Source: Chiloscyllium plagiosum | Lineage: Eukaryota | Assembly: GCF_004010195.1 (NCBI RefSeq) | Contig: NC_057719.1 | Coordinates: forward strand, 17,842,165-17,906,164 | DNA: 64,000 bases | Direction: 5' to 3' | Shown: piece by piece, positions 2,915-58,830 of the stretch | Position numbering within the stretch: position 1 is the stretch's first letter | How the letters are laid out: each line of letters opens with the position of its first letter | Made by a program: the position numbers and the translations under genes | Notes under the pieces: generated by a model | The model's database searches: none | The model's input: only the letters and a program-made list of their open reading frames with translations | What the model was told of the DNA's origin: nothing

Positions 2915-3070
2915 AAGGGCATTTAATGGAGAAAGTGAGGACTGCAGATGCTGGAGATCAGAGCTGAAGAAGGGCTCATGCCCGAAACGTCGATTCTCCT
3001 GCTCCTTGGATGCTGCCTGACCTGCTGCGCTTTTCCAGCAACACATGTTCAGCACAAGGGCATTTAATGG
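2915..3070 (+). mobile_element. Short Penelope-like (family A) fold-back insertion with 15-bp TSD
   Basis: TSD aagggcatttaatgg at 2915-2929 and 3056-3070; the insert is an inverted element 3' end (ggagaaagtgaggactgcagatgctggag) joined to the hammerhead-bearing segment. Confidence 0.8.
2964..2993 (+). ncRNA. Minimal hammerhead ribozyme motif (family A), core intact
   Basis: CTGAAGA-A-GGGC-TCAT-GCCC-GAA-ACGT-C; the 5' strand of stem I was lost at the fold-back junction. Confidence 0.7.
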
Positions 3071-3394
3071 GGTGAGATAGTGGCATATCTGTTTCCTGCC
3101 ATTACCTCTCCCTCCACCTTACACCGCCTCTCCATAAACTCCCAGCTCTAAGCACCTTCCCCCCCGCCCTCAATCTCATAAATCTTGCTTCTTGGTTCTC
3201 CATGATTCTGGGACTCTGGAGTGCTTGATGGTGCTGTTGGGGTCAATCCCTATCTTACCAACTGTCACAAAGCAACATTTCTGCCCCCAGGCTCCTAATT
3301 CCAGCTCATGGCCTACTGGTGGCCTTGCCAATGCCAGATTGGCATTAAATCAAGTGGGTCTTGTCTGGAAGGGCAGTCTGGGATGTGTTGTTGG

Positions 3395-3900
3395 CTCTCC
3401 AGTTGGCTAGATAACTGAATTGTAATGGAAAGTCATGCCAACAGCGTGTGTTCATTTCCCACATGGAGGTTACCGTGAAGGATCCTCCTTTTCAACCTCT
3501 TCCCTCGTCTGAGCCCTGGTGATCCTCAGGTTAAACAACCACATCCTCAGTGATTAGCACTACTGCCTCGCAGCACCAGGGTCCCAGGTTCGATTCTGGC
3601 CTCGGGCGACTGTCTGTGTGGAGTTTGCACGTTCTCCCAGTGTCTGCGTGGGTTTCCTCCGGGTGCTCCAGTTTCCTCCCACAGTCCAAAGATGTGCAGG
3701 CCAGGTGAATTGGCCATGCTAAATTGTTAGGTGCATTAGTAAGAGGAAAATGGGACTAGGTGGGTTACTCTTTGGAGAGTTGGTGTTGACTTGTTGGGCC
3801 GAAGGGCCTGCTTCCACACTGTAGGGAATCTAATCTAATCTAATCTCTTTATAATGAGAGAGCAGCCCTATGGTCTAGTAGGACTATAGCAACTTTACAG
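3395..3900 (+). mobile_element. Old tRNA-derived SINE (unnamed), interrupted by an HE1 SINE
   Basis: Colinear with the copy at 36740-37190 (gccaacagcgtgtgttcatttccca...ggtgatcctcaggtta...gagagagcagccctatggtct...actttac). Confidence 0.5.
3548..3846 (+). mobile_element. HE1-type V-SINE
   Basis: tRNA-like head with B box ggttcgattc, V domain gtggagtttgcacgttctccc..gtgtctgcgtgggtttcctccgggtgctcc, CR1-derived tail gggccgaagggcctg and (taatc)n end. Confidence 0.9.
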
Positions 3901-4654
3901 AAATTATTGACTGATATTTCATTTAAAAGATACTTAAGCTATCAACATCCAGCTCTAATTTTCTATCCTGAACTTACTTGGCAATGAATGTACAAAAAAA
4001 CAGTAATTTCTCAGAATTGGTTGGAGCAAACGTTTCTATGCCCCGTGAAGCTAATAGTGGGAATGTGTAGTGTCTTGTGGCAATTAGCAATTCAAGAAGT
4101 GTCCCTTCCTGACCATAGTGAGCCCTCCCTTTTTCATAACAGCAAAGTCTAAGCCATCAGTTTCTATTGAAGGTACAGCAACATGGTAAGCCCTCACAGC
4201 CATCAATACACTCTCAGTGAGATGCTTATTTTGCTTTCCTTTGTCACGTTCATGGTTTCTTTTGTTATTTTGCATAATTTTCCTTTCTCTTTCGTCAGGG
4301 GACTCTATAAAACTAGTCACAGACAGTACTGGAAGTTGACCCTTGATCTGTAGAATGCAGATCTCCCAGACCAATGACCAACAGAGATTCCCAGAAACAT
4401 AAGAGGCAGCTTTGGTTCTGTTCCACAGCTGTAAGGTTTGACCGCAAGTTATCAGCGCCTTTCCTGATTTGGGACACTGTGATAAATCTGTGTTTTAAAA
4501 CAATACTTTGATTCCTAAAAATAAGACCATGGCATTTGACCCGATTTTTTTTTTTCTTTCACTCGTAGGTTGGCCAATCTCCTTCTTGGAAAGGCCACAA
4601 ATGAATATGAATATATTCCAGATTGAGATTGAAACCTCACTGGCTTGCTTTTGG

Positions 4655-5108
4655 TTTGGACACGCCAGACAAAGAATTTATAGAAAAAGTTTCCAGTGTG
4701 ATGTAAGTAAAATTATATATTGAAAAAGACCCGACTGTTTGTCAAGTCTCTCGTCTTTTAGAATGACCATGTGGCACAGACAGCCTCACAGGGAGTTAAC
4801 ACCTTCAATACCTTATCTGGGCCGAAATGACACCAATTGTTAAAGTGCACTTGAGAATGTAACTTTTAAAAACAGTTTTGCGATTTATGTATGAAAGAAC
4901 TGATACCAATATGGTCATTCTAAAAGATGAGAGACTTAACAAACAATCGGGTCTTTTTCAATATACAATTTCAATTACATCACACCGGAAACTTTTGCTG
5001 TAAATTCAGTGTCTGGCAATCTTATTCTCCACAATCACCTGATGAAGGAGCAGCGCTCTGAAAGCTAATGCTTCCAAATAAATCTGTTGGACTATAACCT
5101 GGTGTTGT
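4655..5108 (+). mobile_element. Penelope-like (family B) 3' fragment with 5' inverted duplication
   Basis: 4659-4772 is the reverse complement of ~4911-5018; ends in a hammerhead motif and the ctgttggactataacctggtgttgt tail shared with the copies at 37291 and 58630. Confidence 0.75.
5036..5070 (+). ncRNA. Minimal hammerhead ribozyme motif (family B)
   Basis: cac-CTGATGA-A-GGAGC-AGC-GCTCT-GAA-AGCT-A-atg; one stem I mismatch relative to the 58734 copy. Confidence 0.65.
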
Positions 5109-11776: not shown

Positions 11777-11930
11777 GAGTGTAAAACTCACTGAGCTCGG
11801 GGAGTGAGTGTAAAACACACTGAGCTGGGGGAGTGAGTATAAAACTCAGTGAGCTCAGGGAGTGAGTGTAAAACTCACTGAGCTCGGGGAGTGAGTGTAA
11901 AACCCACTGAGCTTGGGGAGTGAGTGTAAT
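11777..11930. repeat. Minisatellite, 29-bp unit, ~5 copies
   Basis: gagtgtaaaactcactgagctcggggagt repeated, abutting the gap. Confidence 0.9.
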
Positions 11931-16844: not shown

Positions 16845-17390
16845 ACTTACGGGGAAAGGCTGAACAGTCTACCTCATTCCTGATGAAGGGCTCTTGCCCA
16901 GAATATCGATTCTCCTGCTCCTCAGATGCTGCCTGATCTGCTGTGCTTTTCCAGCACCACAATCTTGACTGAGATCTCCAGCATCTGCAGTCCTCACTTT
17001 CTCCTACCTCATGCTGCCATCAGAGTGTAGAAAAGTAAGAGGTGAGTTGTTTGGAATTGTTTGAAGCTTACAAGATCCTGAGGGGACTTGACAAGTTGTG
17101 TGGGGTAAGGATGTTTTCACTGGCAGGGAGAACCTAGAACTAGGATTCATAGTTTAACTAGAAATGGTCATCCATTTAAGACAGAGATAAATCAAACATT
17201 TTTTCTCTTGAAAGGGTTGCAAATCTTTCGAACTATTCCTCAAAAGGTGGAGGTAGTCTTTAAATTCTTCATATGCAAAAGGGTGAAAGATCATCGAGGA
17301 TAGGGCACAAATGTGTAGTCGTGGTTGATATCAGATCAGCTATGATCTTACTGAATGGTGGAGAAGGCTTAAAGCACCAAATGGCTGACA
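16845..17390 (+). mobile_element. CR1 LINE 3' fragment (old) carrying a family A insertion
   Basis: cttacggggaaaggctgaacag...tacaagatcctgaggggacttgaca...gatcagctatgatcttactgaatggtggag. Confidence 0.75.
16869..17012 (+). mobile_element. Short Penelope-like family A insertion with 9-bp TSD; hammerhead core mutated
   Basis: TSD ctacctcat at 16869-16877 and 17004-17012; ttc-CTGATGA-A-GGGC-TCTT-GCCC followed by a damaged GAAA. Confidence 0.8.
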
Positions 17391-17397
17391 ATGTTTG

Positions 17398-18660: not shown

Positions 18661-19355
18661 ACTTAACATTACACCAGAATTGAAACTCAATTGTCACATT
18701 ACTCAATTGTGTGATTTTGGTTTGATGCAGCTTTTTCCTTATCTTTTAACGTCAATTTGGTATCCTATTACCAGTGTCTTCATTCTCTCCTCATGTCCAA
18801 GTTGCCTTACCTGTAACTGAATATCACGTGATTCCACTGTTTCATGACCTGGTTTCTCTTGCACTTCCCTCAATCCAAATGCTGTGCCAGTACTTCAATC
18901 ATATTGGTCTTCTTAGCTCTGTCAAGCAATATTATCTCCAGTTTATCCCCAACTCAATCAGAGTTTGAAAGAATTCTTAAGACTGTCAGGGACAACTTTG
19001 CCACCTGCAGGGAATCCTTTGTCGCTTCTACTGCCGTGTCATAAATGCAGTACAGAACACAATGTTTTCCTTTTCCTGTATGATTGTATGATTTACTAAT
19101 GCCACATCCAAATACTCATTGCTGCTTCAAAGTTGATTTTGGACAAGCCCCCAAAGTTTGTTATATCCTTTGGGATAGTGTGCTGGAAACCAAGCCCCCT
19201 TATTCCCAGAGTCTTCTGAAAAGGTAAAAGACCTTATTAACCTATGCAAAATCCCTAAGTTTAACTGCTTTTGTTTTGACACAGGTAAAAACAATATAGA
19301 AAACACAGACCAGGTACATAACAAGAGTTACAATCTATTAAAAATAAATATTAAG

Positions 19356-22186
19356 GATGCGAATCTTATCAGATCGAGTGGATCAGTTGAAGAGACAGAT
19401 AGAAATGATGAGGAATTTGCAACAGCAACAGTATATGATGGATAGCAGTTATAGAAAGGGGGGAAAGTCTCAGATACAGTCACAGAGATGGGTTAACTTC
19501 AGGAAGGATAAGAGAGGTCGGCACCTAGGGCAGGAGTTTTTTGTGGATATACCCAATTCAAACAGCTATGCTGTTTTGGAAAACGTAGGGGGTGATGGAT
19601 TCTCAGGGGAACATAGCACGAACAGCCAAGTTTCTGGTCTTGAGACTGGCTCTAATGCAATGAGGGGTAAATCGGCTTCCAAGAGATCAATTGTGTTAAG
19701 GGATTCTGTAGTCAGAGGTACAGACAGACGTTTCTAAGTGGCCAGCAGAGAAAAAGCAGAATGGTGTGTTGTTTCCCTGGTGCCAGGATCAAGGATGTCT
19801 CAGAGAGGGTGCAGAATGTTCTCACGGGGGAGAGGGGCCAGCAAGAGGTATTGTCCACATTGGAATCAATGACATTGGAAGGGAAAAGGTTGAGATTCTG
19901 AAGGGAGATTACAGAGAGTTAGGCAGAAATTTTAAAAGGAGGTCCTCAAGGGTAGTAATATCTGGATTACTCCCAGTGCTACGAGCTAGTGAGGGCAGGA
20001 ATAGGAGGATAGAGCAGATGAATGCATGGCTGAGGAGCTGGGGTATGGGAGAAGGATTCACACCAGGGAGATAGTGAGGAAGGAGATCAATCTGAGACTG
20101 GTACAGTTGAGAACAGAATTGAATCAAACAGTCAGGGCAGTCAGGGACAAGGTAGGACTAATAAATTAAACTGCATTTATTTCAATGCAAGGGGCCTAAC
20201 AGGGGAGGCAGATGAACTCAGGGCATGGTTAGGCACATGGGACTGGGATATCATAGCAATTACGGAAACATGGCTCAGGGATGGGCAGGACTGGCAGCTT
20301 AATGTTCCAGGAACGATAGAAAGGGAGGCAAGAGAGGAGGGGGATAGGGATAGCATTACAGCTGTGCCGAGAGAGGATATTCCTGGAAATACATCCAGGG
20401 AAGTTATTTGGGTGGAACTGAGAAATAAGAAAGGGATGATCACCTTATTGGGATTGTATTATAGACCCCCTAACAGTCAGAGGGAAATTGAGAAACAAAC
20501 TTGTAAGGATATCTCAGCTATCTAAGAATAATAGGGTAGTGATGGTAGGGTATTTTAACTTTCCAAACATCGACTGGGACTGCCATAGTGTTAAGGGTTT
20601 AGATGGAGAGGAATTTCATAAGTGCGTACAAGGCAATTTTCTGACTCAGTATGTGGATGTACCTACTAGAGAAGGTGCAAAACTTGACTTACTCTTGGGA
20701 AATAAGGCAGGGCAGGTGACTGAGGTGTCAGTGGGGGAGCACTTTGGGGCCAACAACCATAATTCTATTCGTTTTAAAATCGTGATGGAAAAAGACAGAC
20801 CAGGTCTAAAAGTTGAAGTTCTAAATTAGAGAAAGGCTAATTTTGACGGCATTAGGCAAGAACTTTTGAAAGCTGATTGCGGGCAGATGTTCACAGGTAA
20901 AGGGATGGCTGGAAAATGGGACGCCTTCAGAAATGAGATAACAAGAATCCAGAGAAAGTATATTCCTGTCAGGGTGAAAGGGAAGGCTGGTAGGTATAGG
21001 GAATGCTCGATGACTAAAGAAATTGAGGGTTTGGTTAAGGAAAAGAAGGAAGCATATGTCAGGTATAGACAGGATAGATCGAGTGAATCCTTAGAAGAGT
21101 ATAAAGGAAGTAGGAGTATGCTTAAGAGGGAAATCATGAGGGCAACAAGGGGACATGAGATAGCATTGGCAAGTAGAATTAAGGAGAATCCAAAGGGGTT
21201 TTACAAATATATTAAGGAAAAAAAGGGTAACTAGGGAGAGAATAGGGCCCCTCAAAGATCAACAAGGCGGCCTTTGTGTGGAGCCGCAGAAAATGGGGGA
21301 CATACTAAACGAATATTTTGCATCAGTATTTACTGTGGAAAAGGATATGGAAGATATAGAATGTAGGGAAATCGATGGTGACATCTTGCAAAATGTCCAT
21401 ATCACAGAGGAGGAAGTGTTAGATGTCTTGAAAAGGGTAAAGGTGGATAAATCCCCAGGACCTGATCAGGTGTACTCTTGAACTCTGTGGGAAGCTAGAG
21501 AAGTGATTGCTGGGCCTCTTGCTGAGATATTTGTATCATCGATAGTCACAGGTGAGNNNNNNNNNNNNNNNNNNNNNNNNNNNNNNNNNNNNNNNNNNNN
21601 NNNNNNNNNNNNNNNNNNNNNNNNNNNNNNNNNNNNNNNNNNNNNNNNNNNNNNNNNNNNNNNNNNNNNNACAAGGTTCCCCATGGGAGACTGATTAGCA
21701 AGGTTAGATCTCATGGAATAAAGGGAGAAGTAGCCATTTGGATGCAGAATGGGCTCAAAGGTAGAAGACAGAGGGTGGTGATGGAGGATTGTTTTTCAGA
21801 CTGGAGGCCTGTGACCGGTGGAGTGCCACAAGGATCGGTGCTGGGCCCTCTACTTTTGTCATTTACATAAATGATTTGGATGTGAGCATAAGAAGTACAG
21901 TTAGTAAGTTTGCAGATGACACCAAAATTGGAGGTGTAGTGGACAGCGAAGAGGGTTACCTCAGATTACACCAGGATCTGGACCAGATGGGCCAATGGTT
22001 TGAGAAGTGGCAGATGGAGTTTAATTCTGATAAATTCAAGGTGCTGCATTTTGGGAAAGCAAATCTTAGCAGAACTTATACACTTAGTGGTAAGGTCCTA
22101 GGTAGTATTGCTGAACAAAGAGACCTTGGAGTGCAGGTTCATACCTCCTAGAAAGTGGAGTCGCAGGTAGATAAGATAGTGAAGAA
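19356..22186 (+). mobile_element. Near-full-length CR1 LINE, 5' part (ORF1 esterase plus ORF2 endonuclease/RT), broken
   Basis: ORF1 IVLRDSVVRGTDRRF..VHIGINDIG (SGNH esterase); ORF2 endonuclease YFNFPNIDWD..LDLLL..NHN; RT IYINDLD..KFADDTK; frameshifts and stops. Confidence 0.95.
21557..21670. other. Assembly gap (114 N)
   Basis: Run of N. Confidence 1.
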
Positions 22187-23294: not shown

Positions 23295-23334
23295 TTGGCC
23301 TCAATCCTCAGACCAACCAGCTACATGTTGCCAG

Positions 23335-24177
23335 CTGCATCACAGTTCTTGCAAGATATTTTGTAAATGACATTAGTTTTGCTTGTTGTCTGTTTAGGGT
23401 CTTTCAACAAGCTGCATTAGAACATCATTTCAATGAGCCACCACACACTGCAGCACAGAGGAACAATGAAGAGTAGAGGAAAATCACCTATACAGCGTAT
23501 TCAAAAAGAATGGGTACCCAATGAACACAGTCTGCAGATTTCTCAGCAACAAACCCAAACAAGCAGACAAAACATGTCCAGAAACCATAGCCACTCTCCC
23601 CTACATCAAAGACATCTGGAAATGACTGCCAGACTACTCAGACCTGTTGGTGTTATGGTAGCCCACAAATCCAGCAACACACCAAAACAGCAGCTAATGA
23701 ACCTGAAAGACCCTGTACAGACAGCAAGCAAAACTAATGTCATTTACAAAATACCTTGCAAGAACTGTAACGAACTCTACATTGGACAAACAGGCAGAAA
23801 ACTAGCTACTAGGATGCATGAACATCAACTAGTTACAAAAAGACCCTTACATACAGATGAGGAAGGACACCACTTCGACTAGGACACCACATCCATCCGA
23901 GGACAAGCCAAACAGAGACATGTGTGAGTATTCCTAGAAGTATGGCATTCCGACCAGAACTCTATCAACAAACACATTGACTTGGATCCCATTTACTGCC
24001 TCCTGAGAAAAAGAGCAGAAAATGATATCACCAACCCAAGGAAACCTAAACACATAAATAACAAGTGGGCCATACCACTAGTGCTTCATCCGGAGGCTCA
24101 CAGATGATGTCACCTAGAATGGTGATGAAACATCTGAAAATGAACCTTCCAACTGAGCAAACAAACCTACATCCAGA
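23335..24177 (+). mobile_element. Penelope-like retroelement 3' portion with GIY-YIG endonuclease and 5' inverted duplication
   Basis: NVIYKIPCKNCNELYIGQTGRKLATRMHEHQ (GIY-YIG) followed by ..NSINKHIDLDPIY; 23341-23406 is the reverse complement of ~23704-23769. Confidence 0.92.
24098..24137 (+). ncRNA. Minimal hammerhead ribozyme motif in Penelope 3' region (family D, decayed)
   Basis: tca-CAGATGA-T-GTCACC-TAGAAT-GGTGAT-GAA-ACAT-C-tga; stem I tca/tga; three point changes from canonical. Confidence 0.6.
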
Positions 24178-28189: not shown

Positions 28190-28700
28190 TTTTTCATGGG
28201 ATATGGGCATTACTGGTTGGACCAGCATTTACTGCCCATCCCTAATTGCCCAGAGGACAGTTAAGAATCAATCACATTGCAGAGTATCTGGAGTCACATG
28301 TAGTTCAGACCAGATTAGGATGACAGTTTCCTTTTTTAAAGGACATGAGTGAACCACACAGGATTTTCTTGACTATTAGCAACAGTTTCACAATCATTAT
28401 TACACCCCTAATTCCAGAATTTTATTGAATTCAAATTCCACCACCTGCCATAGCAGGATTTGCAGTTGGGTAGCGAGAATATCACAGCAGGTCAAGCTGC
28501 TTCAGGATTCCTGAAGAAGGGCTCATGCCCGAAACATCGATTCTCCTGCTCCTTGGATGCTGCCTGACCTGCTGCGCTTTTCCAGCAACACATTTTCAGC
28601 TCTGATCTTCAGCATCTGGAGTCCTCACTTTCTCTTAGCGAGAATATCACTTGGGTCTCTGGAGTAATAGTCCAGTGGTAATGCCACTGGATCATCACTT
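28190..28700 (-). mobile_element. tRNA-derived shark SINE (same family as 10950-11285) carrying a family A insertion
   Basis: ccagcatttactgcccatccctaattgccc..ctggagtcacatgtag..ttaattccaga-like..gaattcaaattccacca. Confidence 0.75.
28471..28650 (+). mobile_element. Short Penelope-like family A insertion with 15-bp TSD and hammerhead motif
   Basis: TSD tagcgagaatatcac at 28471-28485 and 28636-28650; ttc-CTGAAGA-A-GGGC-TCAT-GCCC-GAA-ACAT-C-ga at 28508-28540. Confidence 0.85.
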
Positions 28701-30816: not shown

Positions 30817-30957
30817 TCCCCAGAAGGGGAAAGTGAGGACTGCAGATGCTGGAGACCAGAGTTGAAAAATTTGGTGCTGGAAAAACACAGCAGGCCAGGC
30901 AGCATCCGAGGATGCTGTGTTTTTCCAGCACCACATTTTTCATCCCCAGAAGGGGAA
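30817..30957. mobile_element. Family A fold-back mini-insertion with 15-bp TSD (no hammerhead)
   Basis: TSD tccccagaaggggaa at 30817-30831 and 30943-30957; internal inverted arms ggtgctggaaaaacacagca / tgctgtgtttttccagcacc. Confidence 0.85.
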
Positions 30958-33332: not shown

Positions 33333-33890
33333 TAGAGGAAGGATGTTGTGAAACTTGAAAGGGTTCAGAAAAGATTTACAAGGATGTTGCCAGGGTTGGA
33401 GGATTTGAGCTAGAATGAGAGGTTGAATCGGCTGGGGCTGCTTTCCCTGGACCATCGGAGGTCATCTTTATAGAAGTTTATAAAATTGGGAGGTGCAGAG
33501 AAGGGGTAAATAGACAAGGTCTTTTCCCTGGATTGGGGGAGTCCAGAACTAGAGGGCATAGGTTTAGGGTGAGAGGGGAAAGATTTAAAAGGGAGCTAAG
33601 GGGCAACTTTTCCATGCAGAGGGTGGTGTGTGTTTGGAGTGAGCTGCCAGAGTCGAGAGTGTAGTGCTGGAAAAGCACAGCAGGTCAGGCAGCATCTGAG
33701 GAGCAGGAGAATCGATGTTTCGGGCATAAACCCTTTATTAGGAATCAGCTGCCAGATGAAGTGGTGGAGGCTGGTACAATTACAACATCTAAAACGCATC
33801 TGGATGGGTAGATGGATAGGAAACGTTTGCATATCGGCCAAGTGTTGACAAATGGGACTAGAGTAATTTAGGATATTTGGTTGACATGGA
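33333..33890 (+). mobile_element. CR1 LINE 3' fragment
   Basis: aggatgttgtgaaacttgaaagggttcagaaaagatttacaaggatgttgcc; same subfamily as 22671-23294. Confidence 0.9.
33642..33756 (-). mobile_element. Family A insertion inside CR1, 10-bp TSD, hammerhead core mutated
   Basis: TSD agctgccaga at 33642-33651 and 33747-33756; minus strand ttc-CTAATAA-A-GGGT-TTAT-GCCC-GAA-ACAT-C. Confidence 0.8.
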
Positions 33891-36739: not shown

Positions 36740-37190
36740 GGATCAGTTAGCTCAGTTGATGAGAGGAGACAAAAAAATAAATCTGCAAATGCTGGAACCC
36801 AAGGCAGATAGGCAGGAGGCTGGAAGAACACAGCAAGCCATGCAGCATCAGGATGTGGAGAAGTCATCGTTTCAGGTGTCACCCTTCCAAGAAGAGTTAT
36901 ACCTGAAATGTCAACTTCTCCACCTCCTGATGCTGTCTGGCTTGCTGTGCTCTTCCAGCCTCCTGCTTGTCTACCAGTTGATGAGATGGTGAGAATAGAG
37001 CCAGCTATGTGGGTTCATTTCCCATTCCGTATGTGATAATTCACAGAGACTGTTCCTCCTCATTTTGCCACATTCTTGCAAAATGGTGCCCCTCAAGTTA
37101 TGTAATCAGATGTCTTTGTGTGACATGGAGAGAGATTACAATGGTCTTTTGTGAACTAAGACTAATTAGCTTTACCTACCTCAACCAAAT
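36740..37190 (+). mobile_element. Old tRNA-derived SINE (as at 3395-3900) carrying a fold-back insertion
   Basis: A-box ttagctcagttg, B-box-like gggttcatttccc; body colinear with the 3395 copy. Confidence 0.55.
36753..36986. mobile_element. PLE-related fold-back insertion with 12-bp TSD
   Basis: TSD cagttgatgaga at 36753-36764 and 36975-36986; ~85-bp inverted arms (gcaggaggctggaagaacacagcaagcca / tggcttgctgtgctcttccagcctcctgc). Confidence 0.85.
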
Positions 37191-37290: not shown

Positions 37291-37910
37291 GGGTTAAAAA
37301 TCCCACAACACCAGGTTATAGTCCAACAGGTTTATTTGAAATTATTAGCTTTCAGAGCACTGCTCCATCATCAGGCAGCTGTTGGACTACAACCTGGTGT
37401 TGAGGGATTTTTAACTTTCGTGAGTGTGGTGCTGGAAAAAGCACAGCAGGTCAGATAGCTTCCGAGGAGCAGGAGAATTGACATTTTGGGCAAAAGCCCT
37501 TCGTCAGGAATGAGGCTGGGAGCCTCAGGGGTGGAGAGATAAATGAGAGGGGAGTGAGGCTGGGTGGGGCAAGGTATTTGAGAGTGCGATAGGTAGATAG
37601 AGGTGGGAGTAAAGGTGATAGTTCGGATGGGAGGGTGGAGTGGATAGGTGGGAAGGAAGATGGACAGGTAGGACAGACCATGAGGGTGGTGCCGAGTTGG
37701 AAGGTTGGAACTGGGATAAGGTGGCGGGAGGGGTAATGAGGAAACTGTGTGGTTGGAGGGTCCAGAGGCTGAAGAGGAGGCATTCTTCCTCCAGGTATGG
37801 GGTGGCTAGGGAGTGGCAATAGAGGTGTCCAGGACCTGTATGGAGTTGATTTTTAACTTTGCCCCCACATCAGGATGTGGAGTGTCCGTTTTGGACTGGG
37901 GTGGACAAAG
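37291..37910 (-). mobile_element. Family B fold-back element containing a nested family A Penelope 3' fragment
   Basis: Family B hammerhead on the minus strand at ~37343-37378; nested insert 37419-37847 flanked by the 13-bp TSD gatttttaacttt (37406-37418, 37848-37860), with a second decayed hammerhead at ~37476-37510. Confidence 0.8.
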
Positions 37911-38942: not shown

Positions 38943-38944
38943 AC

Positions 38945-40068: not shown

Positions 40069-43000
40069 TCTTAATTGTGACCCCTCGTAATTGAGTCCCC
40101 CACTCTGGGAAAAAGCTTCTTGTTATCCACCCTGTTTATACCTTTCAATGGTGTTGTGGACCTCAATCAGGTCTCCCTCTCAACCTTTGTATCTCTAATG
40201 AACATAATCCTAATCTATTCAACCTCTCTTCATAGCTAGCACCCTTCATATCAGGCAACATCCTAGTGAACCTCCTCTGTACCCTCTCCAAAGCATCCAC
40301 ATCATTTTGGTAATGTGGTGACCAGAACTGTATGCTGTATTCCAAATGTGGCTGAACCAAAGTCTTATACAGTTGTAAGATGACCTGCCAACTCTTGCAC
40401 TCAATACCCCATCCAATGAAGGAAAGCATACCGTATGCCTTCTTGACCACTCTATTGACCTGCATTGCCACCTTCAGGGAACAATGGATCTGAACACCCA
40501 GATCACTCTGTACATTAAGTAAATGGAAAAGTCCTGGGGAAAATTATAGTTTGCTCTTGAATTGGACTTTCCAAAATGCATTACTTCACATCTGCCCACA
40601 TTGAACTCCATCTGCCATTTCTCTGCCCAACTCTCTAATCTCTCTATTCTGCTGTATTCTCTGACAGTCCCCTTAACTATCTGCTACTCCACCAATCTTA
40701 GTGTCATCGACAAACTTGCTAATCAGGCAACCCACACCTTCCTCCGAATCATTTATGTATATCACAAAGAACAGTGCTCCCATCACAGATCCCTGTCGAA
40801 CACCACTGGTCACAGGTCTCCATTTTGAGAAACTCCCTTCCACTCTTACTTTGTGTCCTGTTGCCCAGTCAGTTCTTTATCCATCTAGCTAGTACAACCT
40901 AAACCCCATGCGACTTCATCTGCTCCATCAGTCTATCATGGGGAACCTTATCAAATGCCTTACTGAAGTCAATGTAAATGACATTCACAGGCCCTCCCTC
41001 AATGACCTTTGTAACTTCCTCAAAGAATTCTATTAAGTTGGTAAGACATGACCTTCCCTGCAGAAATTCATGTTGCCTATCACTGATAGGCCCATTTTCT
41101 TCCAAATGGGAATAGATTCTATCCTTTAGTATCTTCTCTAGGAGCTTCCCTACCACTGTCATCCAACTCACCGGTCTATAATTACCTGGATTATCACTGC
41201 TACTCTTCTTAAAAAAGGGGACAACATTAGCAATTCTCCAGTCCTCCAAAACTTCACCCGTGTTCAAGGATACTGCAAAGATTTCTGTTAAGGCCCCAGT
41301 TATTTCCTCTCTCATTTCCTTCAGTAATCTGGGATCGATTCCATCCAGATCTGGGGACTTGTGCACCTTAATGCCTTTTAGGATACCAAAGACTTCCTCC
41401 CTCCTTATACTGACTTGACCTAGAGTAATCAAACATCTATCCCCCACCTCAACATCTGTCATGTCCCTCTCCTTGGTGAATACCGATGCAAAGTACTTAT
41501 TAAGAATTTCACCCATTTTCTCTGATCCACACATAACTTTCTTCCTTTGTCCTTGAGTGGGTTAACCTTTTCTCTAGTTACCCTCTTGCTCCTTATAATA
41601 TGATTAAAAGTCTTTGGGATTTTCTTTAAATCTGTTTGCTAAAGATATTTCATGATCCCTTTTAGCCCTCTTTATTCCTCATTTCAGGTCGGTCGTATAT
41701 TCCTGATATTCTTCCAAAGATTAATTTGTCTTCAGATGCCAAGACCTTATGTATGCTTCCTTTTCCCTCTTAGCTAGTCTCACAATTTCACCAGTCATCC
41801 ATGCTTCCCTAATGTTGCCATTTCTAACCCTCATTTTCACATGGATATATCTTTCCCGCAACCTAATCAACCTCTCTTTAAAAGCCTCCCACAAATCAAA
41901 TGTGGATTTACCTTCAAAACTACATTCCCCAACTCCTGCCGAATTTTGGTATAGCTGGCCTTCCCCAAGTTTAGCACTCTTCCTTTCGGAACACTCTCTT
42001 CTTTGTCCATGAGTATTCTAAAACGTAAGGAATTATGATCACTATTCCCAAAGTAATCCCCTACTGAAACTTCAACCACTTGGCTGGGCTTATTCCCCAA
42101 CACCAGGTCAAGTATTACCCCTTCCTGAGTTGGATTATTTGAATTGAAATGAATTGAATTGAATTGAATTTATTGTCACGTGTACCGAGGCACAGTGAAA
42201 AGTTTCGTCTTGTGAGCAATACAGGCAGATCAGATTGTGAAGTAGCATAGAAAGTAAATAAGAGGTAAACAGCCACAAAAGGAAAAACACAGGTACAGGT
42301 GAATGTTAAGAGTTTGTGAGTCTATTCAGTATTCTCACAAGTCATGTAGAAACTGTTACAAAACCAGCTGGTGTGTGTGTTCAGGCTTCTGTACCTTCTG
42401 CCCGATGGTAGAGGTTTTTGGAAAAACATTGCCAGGGAGGGATGGATCTTTGAGAATGCTGGTGGCCTTTCCTTGACAGTGGGCCTGGAAGATGGATTCT
42501 ATAGATGGGAGGCTGGCCTTTGTGATTGTCCAAGCCGAGTTAGTCATTCTCTGTAACCATCTCCGATCATGAATAGTACAGTTGCCATACCAGGTAGTGA
42601 TACATCCAGACAGAATGCTCTCGATGGCGCACCTATAAATGTTGGCAAGGATATTTGTTGTCATGCTAATTTCCACAGCTGCCTGAGGAAGAAGAGACAT
42701 TGTTGGGCCTTTGTAACCAGTGCGTCCACATGAAGAGTCCAAGAAAGCTTGTTGTGGATGACCACTCCCAGGAGCTTGACACTCTCCACTCGTTCCACCT
42801 CTGTGCTGGAAATGTTAAGGGGGTTATGAGTAACATCCCGCCGAAAGTCAATAATGAGTTCCTTGGTATGCTGGCATTGAGAGCTAGGTTGTTCTCAGTG
42901 CACCATTTTCCAGGTCTTCCACCTCCCATCTTGTAGTCTGTTTTGTTGCCATCTGAGATTCGACCGACTATGGTGGTGCCATCAACGAACTCGTAAATGG

Positions 43001-44880
43001 CAATAGTCTGGTATTTGGCGACACACTCCTGGATCTACACTGAGTACATAGGGGTCTGAGTAGGCACCCCTGGGGGGTGGGGGGTGGTGGCAGGGGGATG
43101 GCTCCAGGGATGAGTGTTAGTGAGGATGAAATATTGTCCCCAATCTTCACTGATTATGGCCTGTGAGTCAAGAAACTGATGATCCAGTTGCAGAAAGTGG
43201 GGCATAGTCCAAGATCACTAAGTTTAGTAATCAGTCTCGAGGGGATAATAGTGTTGAAGACTGAACTGCAGTCAATGAGTAGGATTCTTACATAGCTGTT
43301 CTTGGTGTCAAGATGTTCTAGGGAGGAGTGAAAGGCAAGTGATATGGCATCTGACATGCATCTGTTGGTCCGATAGGCAAATTGGAGTGGATCAAGAGTA
43401 GTGGGGAGGCTGGAGTTAATTAATGCCATGACCAGCCTTTCAAAGGACTTCATGACCACCGAAGTTAGGGTCACTGGGCGGTAGTCATTGAGCCATGCTG
43501 CATGAGCCTACATACATTTACATACTGCTCTAGAAAACCCTCCTGGATGCTCCTTACAAATTCTGCTCCATCTAGACCTCTAATACTATGTGAATCCCAG
43601 TCAATGTTGGGAATGTGAAAATCCCCTATCACCACCAGCCTGTTGCTCCTACATCTTTCCATAATCCATTTACATATTTGTACCTCTATTTCTTGTGAGC
43701 TGTTGGGAGGCCTGTAATACAGCCCCAACATTGTTACCGCACCCTTTCTATTTCTGAGCACTGCCCATATTGCCTCACTGCTCGGGTCCTCCATTGTACC
43801 CTCCTTCAGCACAGCTGTGATATCTTCTCTGACCAGTAATGCAACTCTTCCACTCCTTTTACCTCCCTCACTATCCCACCTGAAGCATCGATATCCTGGG
43901 ATATTTAGTTGTCAATCATGCCATACCCTCAACCAAGTCTCAGTAATAGCAATAACATTGTATCCCCAGGTACTAATCCAAGCCCGACGTTCATCAGCCT
44001 TACCTACTACACTTCTTGCATTAAAACGAAATGCACCTCAGACCACCTGTTCCTTTGTGTTCATCATTTGTTCCCTGCCTACTCTTCCCCTTAGTCATGC
44101 TGACTTCATCATCTAGTTCCTTAAAAGGCTTTAGTTGCTACCTCCTTACTGTCCACACATCTCATTTGGTTCCCCCCTGCCATATTAGTTTAAACTCTCC
44201 CCAATAGCATTTGCAAAAGTAACCCCAAGGACATTGGTTCCATCTGGCCCAGGTGTAGACCATCTAGTTTGTAATTGCCTCACCTCACCCAGAACCGGTC
44301 GCAATGTCCAAAAAATCTAAACCTTTCCTCCTGCACTCTCTCAAGTCATGCATTCATCCTGCCTATTCTTTCATTCCTCCTCTGACTAGCATGTGGCACT
44401 GGTAGCAATCTTGAGATTACTACCTCTGAGGTCCTACTTTTTAACTTGGCTCCTAACTCCCTAATTTCTGTTTGTAGTACCTCATCCCGTTTTTTACCTA
44501 TATCATTGGTGCCTATATGCACCATGGCATTTGGCTGTTCACCCTTCCCCTTCAGAATGTTCTGTAGCCGATCCGAGACATCCCTGACTCGTGCAGCTGG
44601 GAGGCAACATACCATTCGGGAATTCAGTTTTTGACCATAAAACTACCTATTCCCCCTACAATTGAATCCCCTATGACTATAGCCTTTCTGTACAGCAGAG
44701 CCAGCCATGGATGCCATAAGCTTGGCTACTGCTGCCTTCCCTTGGTGAGCCATCCCCCCTGCCTAAATATATCAGTTCACTCACCTTCCCTGAGTGCAAT
44801 TTGACCGCTCCCACTCAGCTCCTCGCTCTCACTGCTGCACCTGAAAATGGAGGCTGCTGACACTCGAGTTAAGTCCTTTT
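40069..44880 (-). mobile_element. Near-full-length CR1 LINE (3'-truncated) interrupted by Rex1
   Basis: ORF1 esterase CCLPAARVRDVS..VHIGTNDIG (44346-44615); endonuclease LGLYYRPP..GDFHIPNIDW; RT 40899-41534 [33 protein letters not shown]. Confidence 0.95.
42141..43515 (-). mobile_element. Rex1/Babar-type LINE 3' portion
   Basis: [60 protein letters not shown]; (caatt)n tail. Confidence 0.9.
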
Positions 44881-45684: not shown

Positions 45685-45772
45685 AAGGGAACGTCATCAA
45701 CCTGAAATATTGACTCTGTTTCTCTCTTTACAAATGCAGTTTGATCTGCTGCGTATTTCCAGCATTTTCTCC
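45685..45772 (+). mobile_element. Family E short repeat (degraded)
   Basis: gtcatcaacctgaaatattgactctgtttctctc..gatctgctgcgtatttccagcattttct. Confidence 0.55.
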
Positions 45773-46500: not shown

Positions 46501-47924
46501 GAATTACAGAATACAATTACTGCAGCTACAGTTTGTGTAACACAGTACATCCATTATAAAAGGTATTAAATATCCTGTTACATTGCACAGCACAACACAA
46601 GCCTGATAAACTACACAATTTAGGCACTAGAAATTTATTGTGAACGAGACTTAATTGTTAAAATCTACTCAATACGGCCAGTATAAACTATTCTGTATAA
46701 TTACTAAACTTATAAAGTACAACATCCATAAATTTCTCAATTGAACCCTGAAAATTCATAGTACTTGATAAGAAAGTGCCCAAAAATAACCACTCGAAGC
46801 TATTCTGTCCAACTTCTATAAACATCTCAACTCCTATAAACTGCACAATGCAACCACTATAAACTGAGTAGTGCCCCTATAAACTTCACAGTGTAACCCC
46901 TATAAATTGTTTAACATGGCTATATTAAGTGCACACAACTGCAGTAAAATGCACAATACAAATATTTAAGATGATTCAGTATAAAATCCACTATACAACC
47001 ACTATAAACTAAATATAAAAACCCATTATAAATTGCATAACTCAACCATTATAATGTGCACGGTACATTTATGACAACCTAATATTACAACTACTGAATG
47101 GAACAGTTGTAAAATACATCATAGAAAACTTATAAACTTGTTCATACTCTACTATAACCTGAAAGGTAGACATGTGTATAATGATTATACACAGTAATTA
47201 CTTGGGGTAACCCAGTCAGTACAGTGACTATAAACTGCGCAGTACATGTTTGTTAAACCACTGTTACAAGTTGAAGTCTGTTGAGCTACCAAGTTAGGTT
47301 TGGCTGCTCAGAGAAGTGATCTTGTTTCCGTCCTATTGAGGATTGGCTCTCATTCCCATGCATCTTCTTGTGTGGGAATGGGAACCAGGACTGTAACAAT
47401 GATCTTTGATTGTATTCTATAGGGGCTACTCCTTCAGCTTCTCTGGAAAATGGGTTGAGTTGACAGAAGGCAATGGGATGTTTTATGATGCATAAGTGGC
47501 TCTATTCCACAGCAAGCAAATAAATACACAGCGCTCTGACTATAATGCTTCGCTTGTCTCAAACTAAATAACTATATGCTAGCCCAGCTCAGCCCACCAT
47601 ACACAAGGTAAAGGATGAAGTTTCTCCTCTCAGTGATTTACTGATGGTTCTCTACGTAACACAGAAGGAAGCCATTCAACCCATTGTGCTTCAGCTGGCT
47701 CTTGTCAAAACCATCCAATCAGACCCCCTCCAACCAGTCTTACAACACCAAGTTAGCTGGCATTTTCCTGAAAAACTAGATATCTGTGAATGTGCTCCTC
47801 CATTACCATGGAGCATTACCATAGCTCTCCATAGTAAACAGACTAAACAGCCAATGCACTACAGGTTGCTTTTGTTCTGAAATCATTGCAGAAAAAAATT
47901 GAAAATGGCTCTTAAATTGAAAGC

Positions 47925-49760: not shown

Positions 49761-50337
49761 ATTTACCAGTAAATCTAAATTTAAAGTGAGAAACAGACTT
49801 AAAAAAAAACGTAAAACTACTTCCAGGTTAAATAGGGATACAGATAAATTTTGAAAAAAAAAATCACTGAAGCCTTATGGCTTTTGGTACATGTCAATTC
49901 AAAAGATTGAGCTAAATCTTTGGAGCATCTTTGGTGGCGTGCAAATGAGTGCTAGTGGATATGCCTAATCATGATTAAAATCACCCTGATGGTGATTTGT
50001 GGGTGCGCCCTGCTCCCTAATGACTGCATCATCGGGGAAAGTAGCAGGATAACCCTGTTGCTATGATGCATTGATGCTGTCCTGCCTTAGGGAGAAACTC
50101 CCAGAGATGGGTTATCATGGCATTCGGATGTACTGCCACAAAGTGGGCATTAAGGCATGTAAAGCCTCAAACCAGGGAAACATATTGCCAACACTAAAAT
50201 TGTCTTGGCATCAAATGAGGCCCCTGGAGTCTACCAGGAATTTGGCAACATCACAAAGGGAACTTCTCACTGGGAGCACAGCAGATCATATGTGGCTTAA
50301 ATAACTGGCAGCATCATGGAACACAATTCCATGGAAC

Positions 50338-51845
50338 AGAAGGGACCTGAAGAAAGGGATTAGGAGAGCTAAGAGAGGGCATGAAAAATCTTTGGCGGGT
50401 AGGATCAAGGATAACCCAAAGGCATTTTATGCGTATGTGAGAAACATGAGAATGACGAGAACGAGGGTAGGTCCGATCAAGGATAGTAGTGGGAGACTGT
50501 GTATTGAGTCGGAAGAGATAGGAGAGGTCTTGAATGAGTACTTTTCTTCAGTATTTACGAACGAGAGGGACCGTATTGTTGAAGAGGAGAGTGTGAAATG
50601 GACTGGTAAGAGGAGATACTGGTTAGGAAGGAAGATGTGTTGGACATTTTGAACAACTCGAGGATAGACAAGTTCCCCGGGCCTGACGGGATATATCCTA
50701 GGATTATGTGGGAAGCAAGAGAGGAAATTGCAGTACCGTTGGCAATGATCTTTTCATCTTCACTCTCAACAGGGGTGGTACCAGGGGACTGGAGAGTGGC
50801 GAATGTTGTGCCCCTGTTCAAAAAAGGGAATAGGGATAACCCCGGGAATTACAAGCCAGTTAGTCTTACTTCGGTGGTAGGCAAAGTAATGGAAAGGGTA
50901 CTGAGGGATAGGATTTATGAGTATCTGGAAAGACACTGCTTGATTAGGGACAGCCAGCACGGATTTGTGAAGGGGAGGTCTTGCCTTACAAGTCTTATTG
51001 AATTCTTCGAGGAAGTGACCAAGCATGTGGATGAGGGTAGAGCAGTGCAGGGTAGAGTAATTTTTATTAATGACTTGGATGAGGGAGTCGAAGGGTGGGT
51101 CAATAAATTTGCAGATGATACGAAGATNNNNNNNNNNNNNNNNNNNNNNNNNNNNNNNNNNNNNNNNNNNNNNNNNNNNNNNNNNNNNNNNNNNNNNNNN
51201 NNNNNNNNNNNNNNNNNNNNNNNNNNNNNNNNNNNNNNNNNNNNNNNNNNNNNNNNNNNNNNNNNNNNNNNNNNNNNNNNNNNNNNNNNNNNNNNNNNNN
51301 NNNNNNNNNNNNNNNNNNNNNNNNNNNNNNNNNNNNTTGGTGTACTGTGTGCAGTTCTGGTCGCCTCACTTTAGGAGAGATGTGGAAGCTTTGGAGAGGG
51401 TGCAGAGAAGATTTACCAGGATGGTGGCTGGAATGGAGAGGGAGTCGTACGAGGATAGGTTGAGAGTTCTCGGCCTTTTCTCGTTGGAACGGCGAAGGAT
51501 GAGGGGTGACTTGATAGAGGTTTATAAGATGATCAGAGGAATAGATAGAGTAGACAGTCAGAAACGTTTTCCCCGGGTACAACAGAGTGTTACAAGGGGA
51601 CATAAATTTAAGGTGAAGGGTGGAAGGTATAGGGGAGATGTCAGGGGTGGGTTCTTTACCCAGAGAGTGGTGGGGGCATGGAATGCGCTGCCTGTGGGAG
51701 TGGTAGAGTCAGAATCTTTGGTGACCTTTAAGCAGCAATTAGATAGGTACATGGATGGGTGCTTAAGCTAGGACAAATGTTCGGCACAACATCGTGGGCC
51801 GAAGGGTCTGTTCTGTGCTGTATTGTTCTATGTTCTATGTTCTAA
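50338..51845 (+). mobile_element. Young CR1 LINE 3' portion with internal RT deletion and a gap
   Basis: ORF 50637-51374 PGDWRVANVVPLFKKG..NYKPVSLTSVVGK; ORF 51070-51771 is the C-terminus; (tatgttc)n tail. Confidence 0.95.
51128..51336. other. Assembly gap (209 N)
   Basis: Run of N. Confidence 1.
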
Positions 51846-52519: not shown

Positions 52520-53940
52520 ATTGCACCCTGTATAAACCCAATAATATGCCCTCTATAAATGCTCCAATACACCTTCTATAAACCAGATATTACAACCTCC
52601 ACAAAACTTCCATTACACCCTCAATAATCCATAGTGTACTCTGTAATAAATGCTACAGTCTCCCTTTATAAATCCCACATTACACCCTTTATAAATGCCA
52701 TGTTAAACTCTGTATTGCCCACATTAACCATCTATTAACTGTGCATTATTCTGCCTGTAACCCCTACAGTAACCCTCTTGAAATCCCACATTATACTCTT
52801 TATTAACCCTACAGTACACTCTATAAAACCCACATTAAACAGCCTCTACAATACCCAAATTACACCCTCTGTAAACCCACATCACACCCTCAAAACCCGA
52901 CATTGCACCCTATATAAACCCCATATTACACACTGTAAACACATTATAAACTCTCAACACATCCAAAAACCCCACATTGCACCCTCTATAAACCCCACAT
53001 CACACCTTCGAAAATCCTGACATTATGTCCTCTATAAACCCTAAATTAGAAACTCCAGAAATGCCTGCAGAACATCCTCTATAAACCCTTCATTATACCC
53101 ATGATAAACTCTACACTATAACCTCCATAAATTCTACACTGCACTCTCTATAAACCCCATGTCACACCCTCCATAAACCACACATTACATCCTCTCTAAA
53201 TCCTACAGATTACCATGAATAAATCTCAGATTAGACCCTTCATTAACCCCACATTACAACCTGTATAAACTTCTTGTTACACTCTGCAAAGCCCACATCT
53301 CACCATCAACCTAACAGTACACCCTATACAAACCCAACAGTACACCTTCTACAAACACTGCAGTACACCATGTATAAACCAAACAGTATACCCTCTATGA
53401 ACTATACATTATACCTTCTATAAACCCTATAGTATACCCTCACTAAACCCCATATTACACCTCCTATTAACCCTAATTTACACACTCTATAGACCATGAA
53501 GTACATACTCTATAACCCTGAAGTACACCCTCTCTTTATGCCACATTACAACCCTGCAGTACGCCTATTTACACTACATTATAACCCTACAGTACCTTCT
53601 CTATAAACTCCTCATTGCACTCTTTATAAAGCTGACATTACATCTTCTATACACCAGTACACGCTGTACAAACTCTGCAGTACATGCTGTATAAACCCTA
53701 CAGTACTCCCTCTATAAAGCCGCATTTTACCCTCCATAAATGTTCCATTACACCCTCTAAATACTCTACAGTACCCAGTCTGTAAGCCCTACAGTACACC
53801 TGTTTAATCTACACAGTACACAGAATAAACCCCAATGTAGAAATTCCATGAATTCAACAGTAAACCTTGTTTAAACTATTTTGTACAGCATCTATAAACA
53901 TATACAAGCGTCAGAATACAAATACCATAAACAGGACAGT
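52520..53940. repeat. Degenerate 23-bp minisatellite (acaccctctataaaccccacatt), roughly 60 units
   Basis: Consecutive 23-mers, e.g. gcaccctctataaaccccacatc / acaccttcgaaaatcctgacatt / atgtcctctataaaccctaaatt. Confidence 0.9.
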
Positions 53941-56180: not shown

Positions 56181-57719
56181 GTGGAAAAGCCTAACCCAAA
56201 CTAATGGGATGACAGCTTACTCTAGTTGCGGGAGTCCAAAAGAAATAAACTTTGGCAGCCTGTGTCCAGTTGCAGCTTGGTGCTGGTCTAGAACATAAAT
56301 CTGTTCTTAATTAGGCACAAATTACAGAGATGTTGGCCTTGAGAATGCATGAGCGTGAAAACTGAAACAGCATAATGTTGCAATAGGAAGTTTATTTCTA
56401 AAGTTGGAATTAAATTATGCGTTAATGTCGAGCAGGCACAATTTTACTTGGTGCCTGGCCGACAATTTTTCTAACCGCGGGTGGTGGGAGGCGGGTAAAA
56501 GAGGCTTTAGTACTGACATTTCATGCTGAATATGTTCCATTTGCCAGAATAAACCAAAAAGTTTCAGTAAAGTGTTTCAAAAGTTGCAATATTAGAAGTG
56601 TAAACATCTTTGTGTGATAATAGTAACAGCACGATGGACTATCCCCTGTGTGTTCTCCTCGGTATATCTTACATTATAAAAATTGTTTTGGAGTTGATGC
56701 CTGCTAAATACTGGACTTGCCCATCAGGCTTGTCCTGTATCTCCTCATAAGAAGCTGGCACAAGCACGAGGGATTTAAAAATCAAAGGATAGGCGCATAG
56801 ATGTGGAGAAAGATGTGTAGGAGGAAGTTCATATGGAGCAAAACTGCCAACAAGGACCAGCGAATAACCTCCTTATTCAAAAGCACAATGTAATAGATAT
56901 ATTTATGCATCAGTCCCATTAATACATGACTGAAATAACTGCACAGAGGCTGGTATCCTATCACTAAGTCACCCTTTATTTACATGTGTACCATATACCG
57001 GCTGTGGCCAGCCAGCTCGGATTCAGTCCTCTGAACTGAAGATTCTAACCTCTTGGTAATTTTTTTTATTTTATTAAACAATACAGTTTACAAAACAATT
57101 AACATTAACAACTGTATACAGAGAAACAACAATTTACAAGGGAGAGGAGAGGCAAAGCCAGGCTCCAAATCCTAATGTTCAACCAGTTTGCAGGGAAATG
57201 AGGACAAACCTCAAATCCCACTTTCAGTCATCACAAAACAGTAACAAATACAGACAAGACAGTCCAATTTGATTATAAGAAAGTGCATAGATTGCAGCAC
57301 CGCACCCCCAAGCAATCCCTCCCACCTTCTGGCCACTCTAAGACAGCCCGCCCTGACACACCTTCCGGCTCTCGGTCCGCACCGACGCCCCTTCCGGCTC
57401 TGTCTGCCCTGTGCCACTTCCAGCTCCTGGTCCACACCGCGCCATTTCTGGCCACCTCTAGGACAGCCTGTCCTGCTTCCTCAAGGCCCCCCCCCCCGCC
57501 GAACGACAGTGATCAGGCCAGCCGACCAACCTACCTTCCGGCTTCCCTAACCACCTTCCGGCCACCTCGAGGACAGCCTGCCCCGGTACCTGCCTGGGGT
57601 GACAGCGCTGAAGGCGGCCTACCCGCCTTCAGGCTCTCAGTCTGCCCCCGTGTACTATCTGGCTCTGACCCACCCTGACGCACCATCCGGCTTGTGGACT
57701 ACCCTGACACCTTCTGACC

Positions 57720-57998
57720 ACCTCTAGGACTCCATCAACAAACACATCGACCTGGACCCAATATACCAACCACTACAGCAGACAGCTGAAACTGACAACC
57801 GGAAGCGGCAGGGACAGACCACTATAAACACCGGAGGAAACATCAATGAAGCACTTCGCAGGAGGCTCCCAAGCACTGATGATGTCGCCTAGCCAGGGGA
57901 CGAAACGTTTGCAACAAAAACTTCCAGCTCGGTGAACAGAACCACAACAACGAGCACCCGAGCTACAAATCTTCGCACAAACTTTGAACCTCTAGGAC
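57720..57998 (+). mobile_element. Penelope-like 3' end (family C) with 11-bp TSD
   Basis: TSD acctctaggac at 57720-57730 and 57988-57998; encodes SINKHIDLDPIYQPL, homologous to the Penelope C-terminus at ~23960. Confidence 0.88.
57873..57912 (+). ncRNA. Minimal hammerhead ribozyme motif (family C), core intact
   Basis: gca-CTGATGA-T-GTCGCCT-AGCC-AGGGGAC-GAA-ACGT-T-tgc; stem I gca/tgc, stem II 6 of 7 pairs. Confidence 0.8.
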
Positions 57999-58618
57999 AG
58001 CCAGTCCCAATTACCCCTTCTTGGGACGACAGCGCTGAGAACAGCCTACCCACCTTCCAGCTCTCAGGGTGATTTGCATCAAGGTGGCCTACCCACTCTC
58101 GCTTTCGGGACAGCCGACCCACCTTCTGGTGCACAGGATGGCCTACCCACCCTCTGGCTCTTGAGGTGATAGCTTTCCGGATGACCCACAAGCCTCCCAG
58201 CTCACAGTAAGGCCTGCCAGACCCAGGGACACACAAGACAGTGCAGGAGATAAACCCAACAAGACAGAGTCCACTCCACAGAATGCATTCCCAAGAACGG
58301 AGTCCACTCCAGTAAGCAGAATGCATTGTTTGAGATAGAGGCCACTCTGATATGCAGAGTCCATTTCTGAAGGCAGCAAATACACACCCCTAGCACACAC
58401 ACAGGTGTTCAGTCTCCATAGAGACCTGGTTTATCCACAGAGAACCAGGCCCACAGTACATTGTGAAGGTACAATTAACTCACAGGAGTTTGGCCCATTC
58501 CTGAACTCCAGGACACAACAAAAGCTCACCTCCCAGCACACACAGATGATTAGTCTTTACAGAGGCATCATCCACCAACAAGGGCCAGACCTACTCTCAG
58601 AAAAAGCTCAAAGTTGCA

Positions 58619-58830
58619 TTTTTTCACAAGCTTGGAGATGCTGGTGGTGGATTGGGGTGTACAAAGTTAAAAATCACACAGCACCAAGTTATACTCCGAA
58701 CAGGTTTAATTGGAAGCAACTGTACTCCACAGCCACCTGATGAAGGAGCAGTGCTCTGAAAGCTAGTGCTTCCATTTAAACCTGTTGGACTATATACAGG
58801 TGTTGTGTGATTTTTAACTTTTCTCACAAG
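58619..58830 (+). mobile_element. Family B fold-back mini-insertion with ~12-bp TSD
   Basis: ttttttcacaag (58619-58630) and ttttctcacaag (58819-58830); inverted arms aaagttaaaaatcacaca / tgtgtgatttttaacttt. Confidence 0.8.
58734..58768 (+). ncRNA. Minimal hammerhead ribozyme motif (family B), near intact
   Basis: cac-CTGATGA-A-GGAGC-AGT-GCTCT-GAA-AGCT-A-gtg; stem I cac/gtg. Confidence 0.75.

Follow-up and report, generated by a model that had tools for sequence, protein, structure and literature searches.

What are the hammerhead-like motifs that recur along a 64,000-nt stretch of the genome of the shark Chiloscyllium plagiosum (NC_057719.1; hereafter the window, in whose coordinates positions are given), and do they act as ribozymes? 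They are almost certainly minimal type I hammerheads residing in the pseudo-long terminal repeats (pLTRs) of Penelope-like retroelements (PLEs). The best explanation as a whole, to which we assign a probability of roughly 80%, is that these PLE hammerheads cleave slowly and with the assistance of protein in the RNA of source elements, and that copies are made from uncut RNA. The genomic copies are mostly truncated, decaying insertions. Motifs of this kind have been known since 2014, and the catch is not in itself surprising. Below, motif positions are counted from C3 of CUGANGA (+1); in families A and E, A(-3) is the first base of helix I.

A sequence-only reading of the window had listed ten sites in four families, A to D. 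All ten are present and all are members of repeat families, but the full architecture, which agrees with the published consensus of minimal hammerhead ribozymes (min-HHRs), is found in only two of them (58737 and 57876). The coordinates first given for families B, C and D marked where stem I starts, and C3 itself comes 3 nt later, at 5039, 58737, 57876 and 24101. Two sites listed near 33730 and 37490 with the strand left unstated turned out to be on the minus strand (C3 at 33741 and 37507), and these, as well as 16880, are decayed as claimed, with several positions lost. The one fully intact motif is the family B motif at 58737, which keeps the core, a 5-bp helix II, the AGCT palindrome and a 3-bp helix I. 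The family C motif at 57876 has the core, six of seven helix II pairs, ACGT and a 3-bp helix I. At 2964 (A), the core and palindrome are kept and the first helix I pair is lost; the 'ttc' stem ascribed to this site is absent, its 5' helix I strand having been swapped for an inverted piece of the element. At 5039 and 37374 (both B), too, helix I has its first pair broken. The family D site at 24101 has a mutated core (CAGATGA) and ACAT instead of the palindrome. Likewise, 28511 (A), which had been credited with an ACGT palindrome, reads ACAT, a CpG-type change, although it matches the strict descriptor introduced below. Beyond these ten, one more core-covering relic, the eleventh such site, lies in the window, as do additional 3' stubs. 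The features are as follows, with family assignments justified further on.

2928..2968, minus strand: inverted arm (tail of the same element), head-to-head with the stub at 2964
2964..3053, plus strand: family A (Neptune) pLTR stub whose core starts at 2964, with the cut predicted after 2991; without the 5' helix I strand; 97.8% to a young copy, begins at C3
4667..4770, minus strand: inverted arm of the family B copy at 4770..5108
4770..5108, plus strand: family B copy whose 5' truncation lies 268 nt upstream of the core; C3 at 5039, cut predicted after 5067; helix I with its first pair broken
16872..17005, plus strand: family A stub with tail; begins ~7 nt before the core; GAA box mutated
23410..24171, plus strand: family D (Poseidon-type) 3' fragment; end of a broken open reading frame (ORF) that includes GIY-YIG (frame 23421-23879), followed by the pLTR motif (24098-24137, core mutated); a short inverted arm at 23342-23407
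28507..28634, plus strand: family A stub with tail; begins exactly at A(-3)
30822..30941, no single strand: head-to-head pair of family A 3' stubs without ribozyme
33648..33748, minus strand: decayed family A stub; C3 at 33741; begins ~6 nt before the core
36886..36959, plus strand: old A/E-type relic, absent from the earlier list; inverted arm 36819-36876
37294..37418, minus strand: family B stub; C3 at 37374; begins 5 nt before the core; inverted arm 37379-37418
37439..37842, minus strand: family A copy; Neptune endonuclease C-terminal end (37681-37830; tblastn 44%, E 2.6e-4), 3' untranslated region, decayed motif with C3 at 37507
57729..57987, plus strand: family C (Poseidon-type) copy; end of the ORF, then the motif at 57873-57912 (cut predicted after 57909) and the tail; extra base after A9 within an ATG at 57882
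58632..58718, minus strand: inverted arm of the 58737 stub
58725..58821, plus strand: family B stub with intact motif 58734-58768, predicted cut after 58765

Old relics of a fifth family, E, lie at 24215-24294 (minus strand) and 45697-45756. Between 37294 and 37918, a B stub, an A copy and a second B tail fragment stand end to end, as if one element had inserted at or into another, and similar nesting occurs in one of the sampled loci (L057).

Could such sites be chance matches to a loose descriptor? CTGANGA alone does occur 60 times in the window. However, a strict descriptor (core, helix II of at least 4 bp, GAA-A..U-H, helix I of at least 2 bp) matched the window twice (28511 and 58737) and 100 dinucleotide shuffles not at all; in 50 pre-chosen 20-kb blocks (956,136 bases) there were 56 matches compared with none in five shuffles. 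Altogether, 70 sampled blocks, drawn from chromosome-sized contigs only and comprising 1,346,833 non-N bases, contain 76 strict motifs, or 56 per Mb (bootstrap 43-71), and 337 core-covering homologues, or 250 per Mb (221-281), with none in the reversed-DNA control. Moreover, exact 30- and 35-letter patterns were found 54,188 (A) and 14,889 (B) times genome-wide, compared with none for the control. Chance is thus refuted, and the claim of a very large ribozyme-motif load stands. Scaled to about 3.4 Gb of the 3.56-Gb genome, the sampled blocks extrapolate to roughly 190,000 strict motifs and 860,000 core-covering relics per genome. For comparison, min-HHR counts are ~4,000 in coelacanth and ~9,000 in Xenopus (PMC4209133), and 126,247 type I hammerhead motifs are reported in axolotl (PMC7229834; bioRxiv 10.64898/2026.07.22.740005), in all cases with descriptors that differ from ours. 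Of the scans proposed along with the sequence-only reading, the descriptor gave matches well above shuffles, and the Rfam covariance models found no hammerhead in the window at E values up to 5, only five unrelated weak matches.

The proposed Penelope-like origin is borne out by the coding sequence next to the motifs. In the window, the GIY-YIG frame at 23421-23879 (Pfam E 9.5e-5) directly precedes the D motif, and elsewhere family A motifs follow long frames combining reverse transcriptase (RT) and GIY-YIG domains, one of 749 aa with the motif ~180 nt past its stop (L217) and one of 754 aa (L218). The longest sampled copies of all five families extend upstream into GIY-YIG-type frames, and the motifs, standing after these frames, occupy the 3' pLTR. 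Family A has RT followed by GIY-YIG, a CXXC inside GIY-YIG and a CX4CXXC linker, an instance of the CX2-5CXXC linker zinc finger that is diagnostic of Neptune/Nematis (PMC8557442). For family B, the endonuclease end alone was recovered, with 40% identity to family A and no match to family D. Family A is Neptune-type, and B likely so. In family D, RVT_1 and GIY-YIG are in separate frames, and neither of the two frames has the linker motif; family C was assigned by endonuclease similarity. Judged by sequence, C and D are related Poseidon-type families with an ORF end and a 3' motif in common. In both, a reading frame opens with an ATG that includes the extra base after A9. By eye, GGAGG upstream of helix I in C and D (57865-57925, 24085-24152) could pair with CTTCC 8 nt beyond as a possible distal helix I, and this putative pairing also overlaps coding frames.

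The closest named proteins, among 120 of 2,614 matches listed, come from carpet sharks and rays, including Chiloscyllium punctatum (83%) and Rhincodon typus (70%). Identity of 95-99% between the proteins of the top Neptune copies points to young, near-identical families. Candidate full-length elements with an 825-aa frame and most of those with ~900-aa 'open frames' turned out to be N gaps and were discarded. Two further family A frames (L214 and L216) hold internal perfect tandem repeats, likely assembly artefacts.

Is the catalytic core conserved in these families? In the five family majority sequences, six of seven CUGANGA positions, the G10.1-C11.1 pair, GAAA and U16.1 are invariant and H17 is never G; outside the motif, none of 30 columns downstream and none of four upstream is invariant. 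The expectation, set beforehand, that family consensi keep the CUGANGA/GAAA core better than the flanks thus holds at family level. Pairs in helices I and II change on both sides from family to family, with helix I reading TTC/GAT or GAA in A, CAC/GTG in B, GCA/TGC in C, TCA/TGA in D and AGTT/AACT in E, and the palindrome is ACGT or AGCT. The stems therefore covary between families, as had been claimed, but not between copies. The extra base after A9 is present in 54 of 56 strict matches, and the palindrome replaces helix III in 53 of 76; in the first 56, 16 of the 19 non-palindromes are ACAT, ATGT or ATAT, indicative of CpG-type decay. Within families, deviation from the majority at catalytic sites compared with flanks is 5.8% and 9.5% in A and 6.3% and 7.7% in B (not significant), rates that are skewed by subfamily structure and by the choice of copies. 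They show that inserted copies decay; selection on the catalytic fold acts in the source lineages.

One family E subfamily replaces C3-G8 with U3-A8. Among the first 100 of 1,640 exact matches, tallied by eye, 86 have U3-A8, nine C3-G8, three U3-G8 and two C3-A8, and the swap happened once, in a single lineage. The pair concerned is the one at which a double mutant rescues cleavage in PAc, a Poseidon element of Anolis (Frangieh et al. 2024, PMC11167929), and the swap repeats a variant reported for Schistosoma (PMC4209133). We regard catalysis as probably real, if weak.

Where do the copies begin? In families A and B, 5' ends fall at -12..+1 107 times per 2,006 nt at risk (0.053 per nt), compared with 23 per 4,046 nt (0.0057 per nt) at -60..-13 and three per 865 nt (0.0035 per nt) at the predicted cut, a pile-up of about 9-fold at the 5' edge of the motif. 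Families C and D show no pile there (one end per 506 nt at -12..+1); another candidate pile in these families, at -120..-180, was weak in DNA, had no step in RNA depth and was dropped. Since the pile in older copies can partly stem from undefined upstream sequence, one young A subfamily was counted genome-wide. Of its 31,178 cores, 28,338 (91%) retain eight more bases downstream; upstream, 18,483 keep four bases, 9,206 (30%) keep eight and at least 6,155 keep 12. A foreign base stands directly before A(-3) in 5,033 of the 18,483 copies reaching A(-3); in the first 100, counted by eye, it is G in 68, A in 18 and T in 14. An extra G marks capped full-length L1 insertions (PMC11702581). As 5' ends gather at the motif edge but not at the cut, capped, uncut RNA is the likely template of the copies. 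In A and E, A(-3) lies in a pyrimidine-A-pyrimidine context, which we take to resemble an initiator.

Might the pile-up instead arise at the DNA level? The elements would be the same, and their 5' ends would be set by an endonuclease cut or microhomology at the ATT before the core, or by cDNA folding back on helix I. The PAc endonuclease prefers 5'-ATT-3' near the ORF-pLTR junction (PMC11167929), head-to-head junctions hold 150 of 326 A and B copies, and 47 of the 73 longer arms end at -12..+1. Some of the G cases can moreover be templated by the inverted arm. On the other hand, a second ATT at +30..32 has no pile, B and E pile up without an ATT there, and C and D have helix I and yet no pile. 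The 68 G among 100 foreign bases also exceed a generous guess of 45% templating (P 3e-6). An origin of the pile-up in DNA-level events therefore seems rather unlikely.

Our preferred reading, copying from capped, uncut RNA, can be cast as a start-site run-off model, towards which we lean slightly. The pLTR promoter would start Neptune RNA at A(-3) or close to it, where helix I begins, and the motif would fill the first ~32 nt of the capped RNA; a promoter within the pLTR has been shown for Drosophila Penelope (PMC2377424). Reverse transcription would start internally, 80-130 nt downstream, and run off the capped 5' end, leaving short stubs, often paired head-to-head through priming of both target strands. 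PAc likewise starts reverse transcription internally and extends both target strands (PMC11167929), which would account for two stubs per site. Cutting by the ribozyme would be slow and confined to the RNA of a few source elements, where two copies would fold together with the help of protein. Its effect would be either to take off the capped leader or to split tandem units, so that cleavage would serve processing or shut-off and would not be needed to make a copy; in PAc, the ribozyme cuts only with protein, and uncut RNA is the main template (PMC11167929). More tentatively, and with somewhat less than even odds, the hammerhead may be the first structure of the capped Neptune RNA, with the cap recorded as the extra G, the tens of thousands of stubs being run-off copies and the ribozyme serving as a self-decapping switch that removes RNA from translation and copying.

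How would a minimal motif cut at all? On its own it is unable to form helix III, and action as a dimer has been proposed (PMC4209133). We counted neighbours among 255 core-containing copies once 12 duplicates had been taken out of 393 rows; an apparent excess of same-strand pairs (20 compared with 7.4) was due to these duplicates and disappeared with them. Within 600 nt there are four same-strand pairs compared with 6.2 expected, and 34 opposite-strand neighbours compared with 6.3, so that only the latter are enriched. As most copies are decayed and either single or head-to-head, they form no working dimers in place, and a transcript through a head-to-head pair would be expected to form a long hairpin, not a double hammerhead. 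The same counts bear on the idea that the short units are self-propagating, non-autonomous retrozymes, in which tandem repeats give rise to circular RNAs. Units of ~100-140 nt are indeed very numerous, and non-LTR retrozymes, reported in one chondrichthyan and derived from pLTRs, resemble the shark motifs in having type I hammerheads and a very high copy number (PMC7229834; bioRxiv 10.64898/2026.07.22.740005). Yet these retrozymes come in tandem repeats of some hundred bases, and in axolotl their motifs are canonical; the shark motifs are dispersed, minimal and head-to-head. No tandem array in the window holds a motif, same-strand neighbours are not in excess, the motifs have no canonical helix III, and longer copies extend into PLE ORFs. 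Retrozymes are thus a very improbable source of the short units.

Several observations weigh against slow cleavage in source RNA combined with run-off copying. Fold energies, genomic footprint and RNA reads give no sign of cleavage. The double-hammerhead fold is never the lowest-energy dimer, lying at least 5 kcal/mol above the best fold in six of six copies, although this agrees with the weak, protein-assisted cleavage in print. In one A subfamily, a foreign purine just before the cut occurs in 267 copies compared with 159 and 332 at neighbouring positions and 28,558 intact copies, that is, without excess; perfect hairpins centred on the cut were found at three loci compared with seven at a control palindrome, in short-read assemblies, which lose such hairpins. 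The 5' ends are spread over some 20 nt (about -12..+8) and do not converge on one base. Among 11 local cases of the extra G, three were scored as ones in which the inverted arm could have templated it, and the 28 local rows, with 11 G and seven A, show a weak preference. No RT or linker was seen for family B, and in C and D the overlap of the motif with the ATG and reading frame may add coding constraint. A 5' pLTR was recovered on none of 14 and none of 16 long copies fetched, the latter mostly N gaps, so that no intact element displays the start site.

In the one informative RNA run, X19, whose polyA single-cell library is poorly fitted to mapping molecule ends, there is also no pile of RNA ends at -3 or at the cut. 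Among 1,255 reads from many copies on both strands, the commonest points of departure from the A reference are A(-3) (85 reads) and -2 (36), and these departures mirror genomic junctions, not RNA ends. A family C copy (L134:6680-7150) is covered by 303 reads with a 3- to 5-fold strand bias and no step at the motif. This bias across the endonuclease end and motif, unlike the pattern in family A, may reflect true transcription of the element.

Is the motif, then, kept as a structural or promoter element (a protein-binding site, initiator or start-codon context) that does not cut in vivo? Such a role would fit the missing cut-site footprint and the ATG overlap in C and D. It would also fit the low in vitro activity of min-HHRs (PMC4209133), the absence of cleavage in eight of nine Xenopus dimers and the finding that core mutants leave PAc insertion unaffected (PMC11167929). 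However, every catalytic position is kept in five families, with H17 never G, and the 3-8 pair was swapped as a pair, as catalysis requires. We therefore regard a purely non-cutting role as improbable and retain slow cleavage in source RNA.

The picture agrees in many respects with known systems. The min-HHRs in the pLTRs of metazoan PLEs (Cervera and De la Pena 2014, PMC4209133) share with the shark motifs the core, the extra base before G10.1, the G10.1-C11.1 pair, the palindrome at 15.2-16.2 and the short helix I, as well as several families per genome, mostly single truncated copies and a U3-A8 variant. The A and B helices in the shark are shorter (helix II of 4-5 bp), the load is far higher, and no shark appears in the parts of that text and supplement covered. 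Families C and D resemble PAc (PMC11167929) in that the ORF starts at the beginning of stem II. Here as in PAc, two 3' ends lie ~35-45 nt apart (the tail), and no RNA ends are seen at the cut. In contrast, activity has been measured for PAc and is predicted for the shark motifs, and the 5' pile-up occurs in our Neptune-type families and not in C and D. With the Neptune and Penelope/Poseidon clades (Craig et al. 2021, PMC8557442), the shark elements share RT followed by GIY-YIG, two cysteines between GIY and YIG, the linker zinc finger (here in A only), strong 5' truncation, inverted 5' copies and the tail; no full partial-tandem element was recovered here. Searches of the open literature returned no report of shark PLE hammerheads or of 5' ends at the motif, although Repbase, Dfam, subscription papers and supplements may list such families.

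The window also contains other repeats. Broken long interspersed nuclear element (LINE) fragments with GDSL-like, AP endonuclease and RT matches lie at 19348-22151, 22735-23307, 38944-39926, 40899-41561 and 50305-51771; by eye, we take them to be CR1-like. A broken RT fragment (RVT_1) at 42356-43507 (minus strand) belongs to a different LINE type. A degenerate 22-23 nt tandem repeat occupies 52744-53800 (~37 copies) and 46828-46906, and a 29-nt tandem repeat (5.3 copies, 11777-11929) adjoins an N gap.

If the more tentative reading of a self-decapping switch is true, this genome would carry a hammerhead load among the largest and densest yet counted, together with a fossil map of the start site of the element. 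At about one per 4 kb, nearly a million relics go unrecognised by Rfam, a point of importance for the annotation of ribozymes and repeats in sharks. The predictions are precise: RNA would start at A(-3) and be cut 31 nt later. For testing what PLE hammerheads do in vivo, this genome is useful in offering a natural U3-A8 variant of the core, long open RT-endonuclease frames and near-identical young copies.

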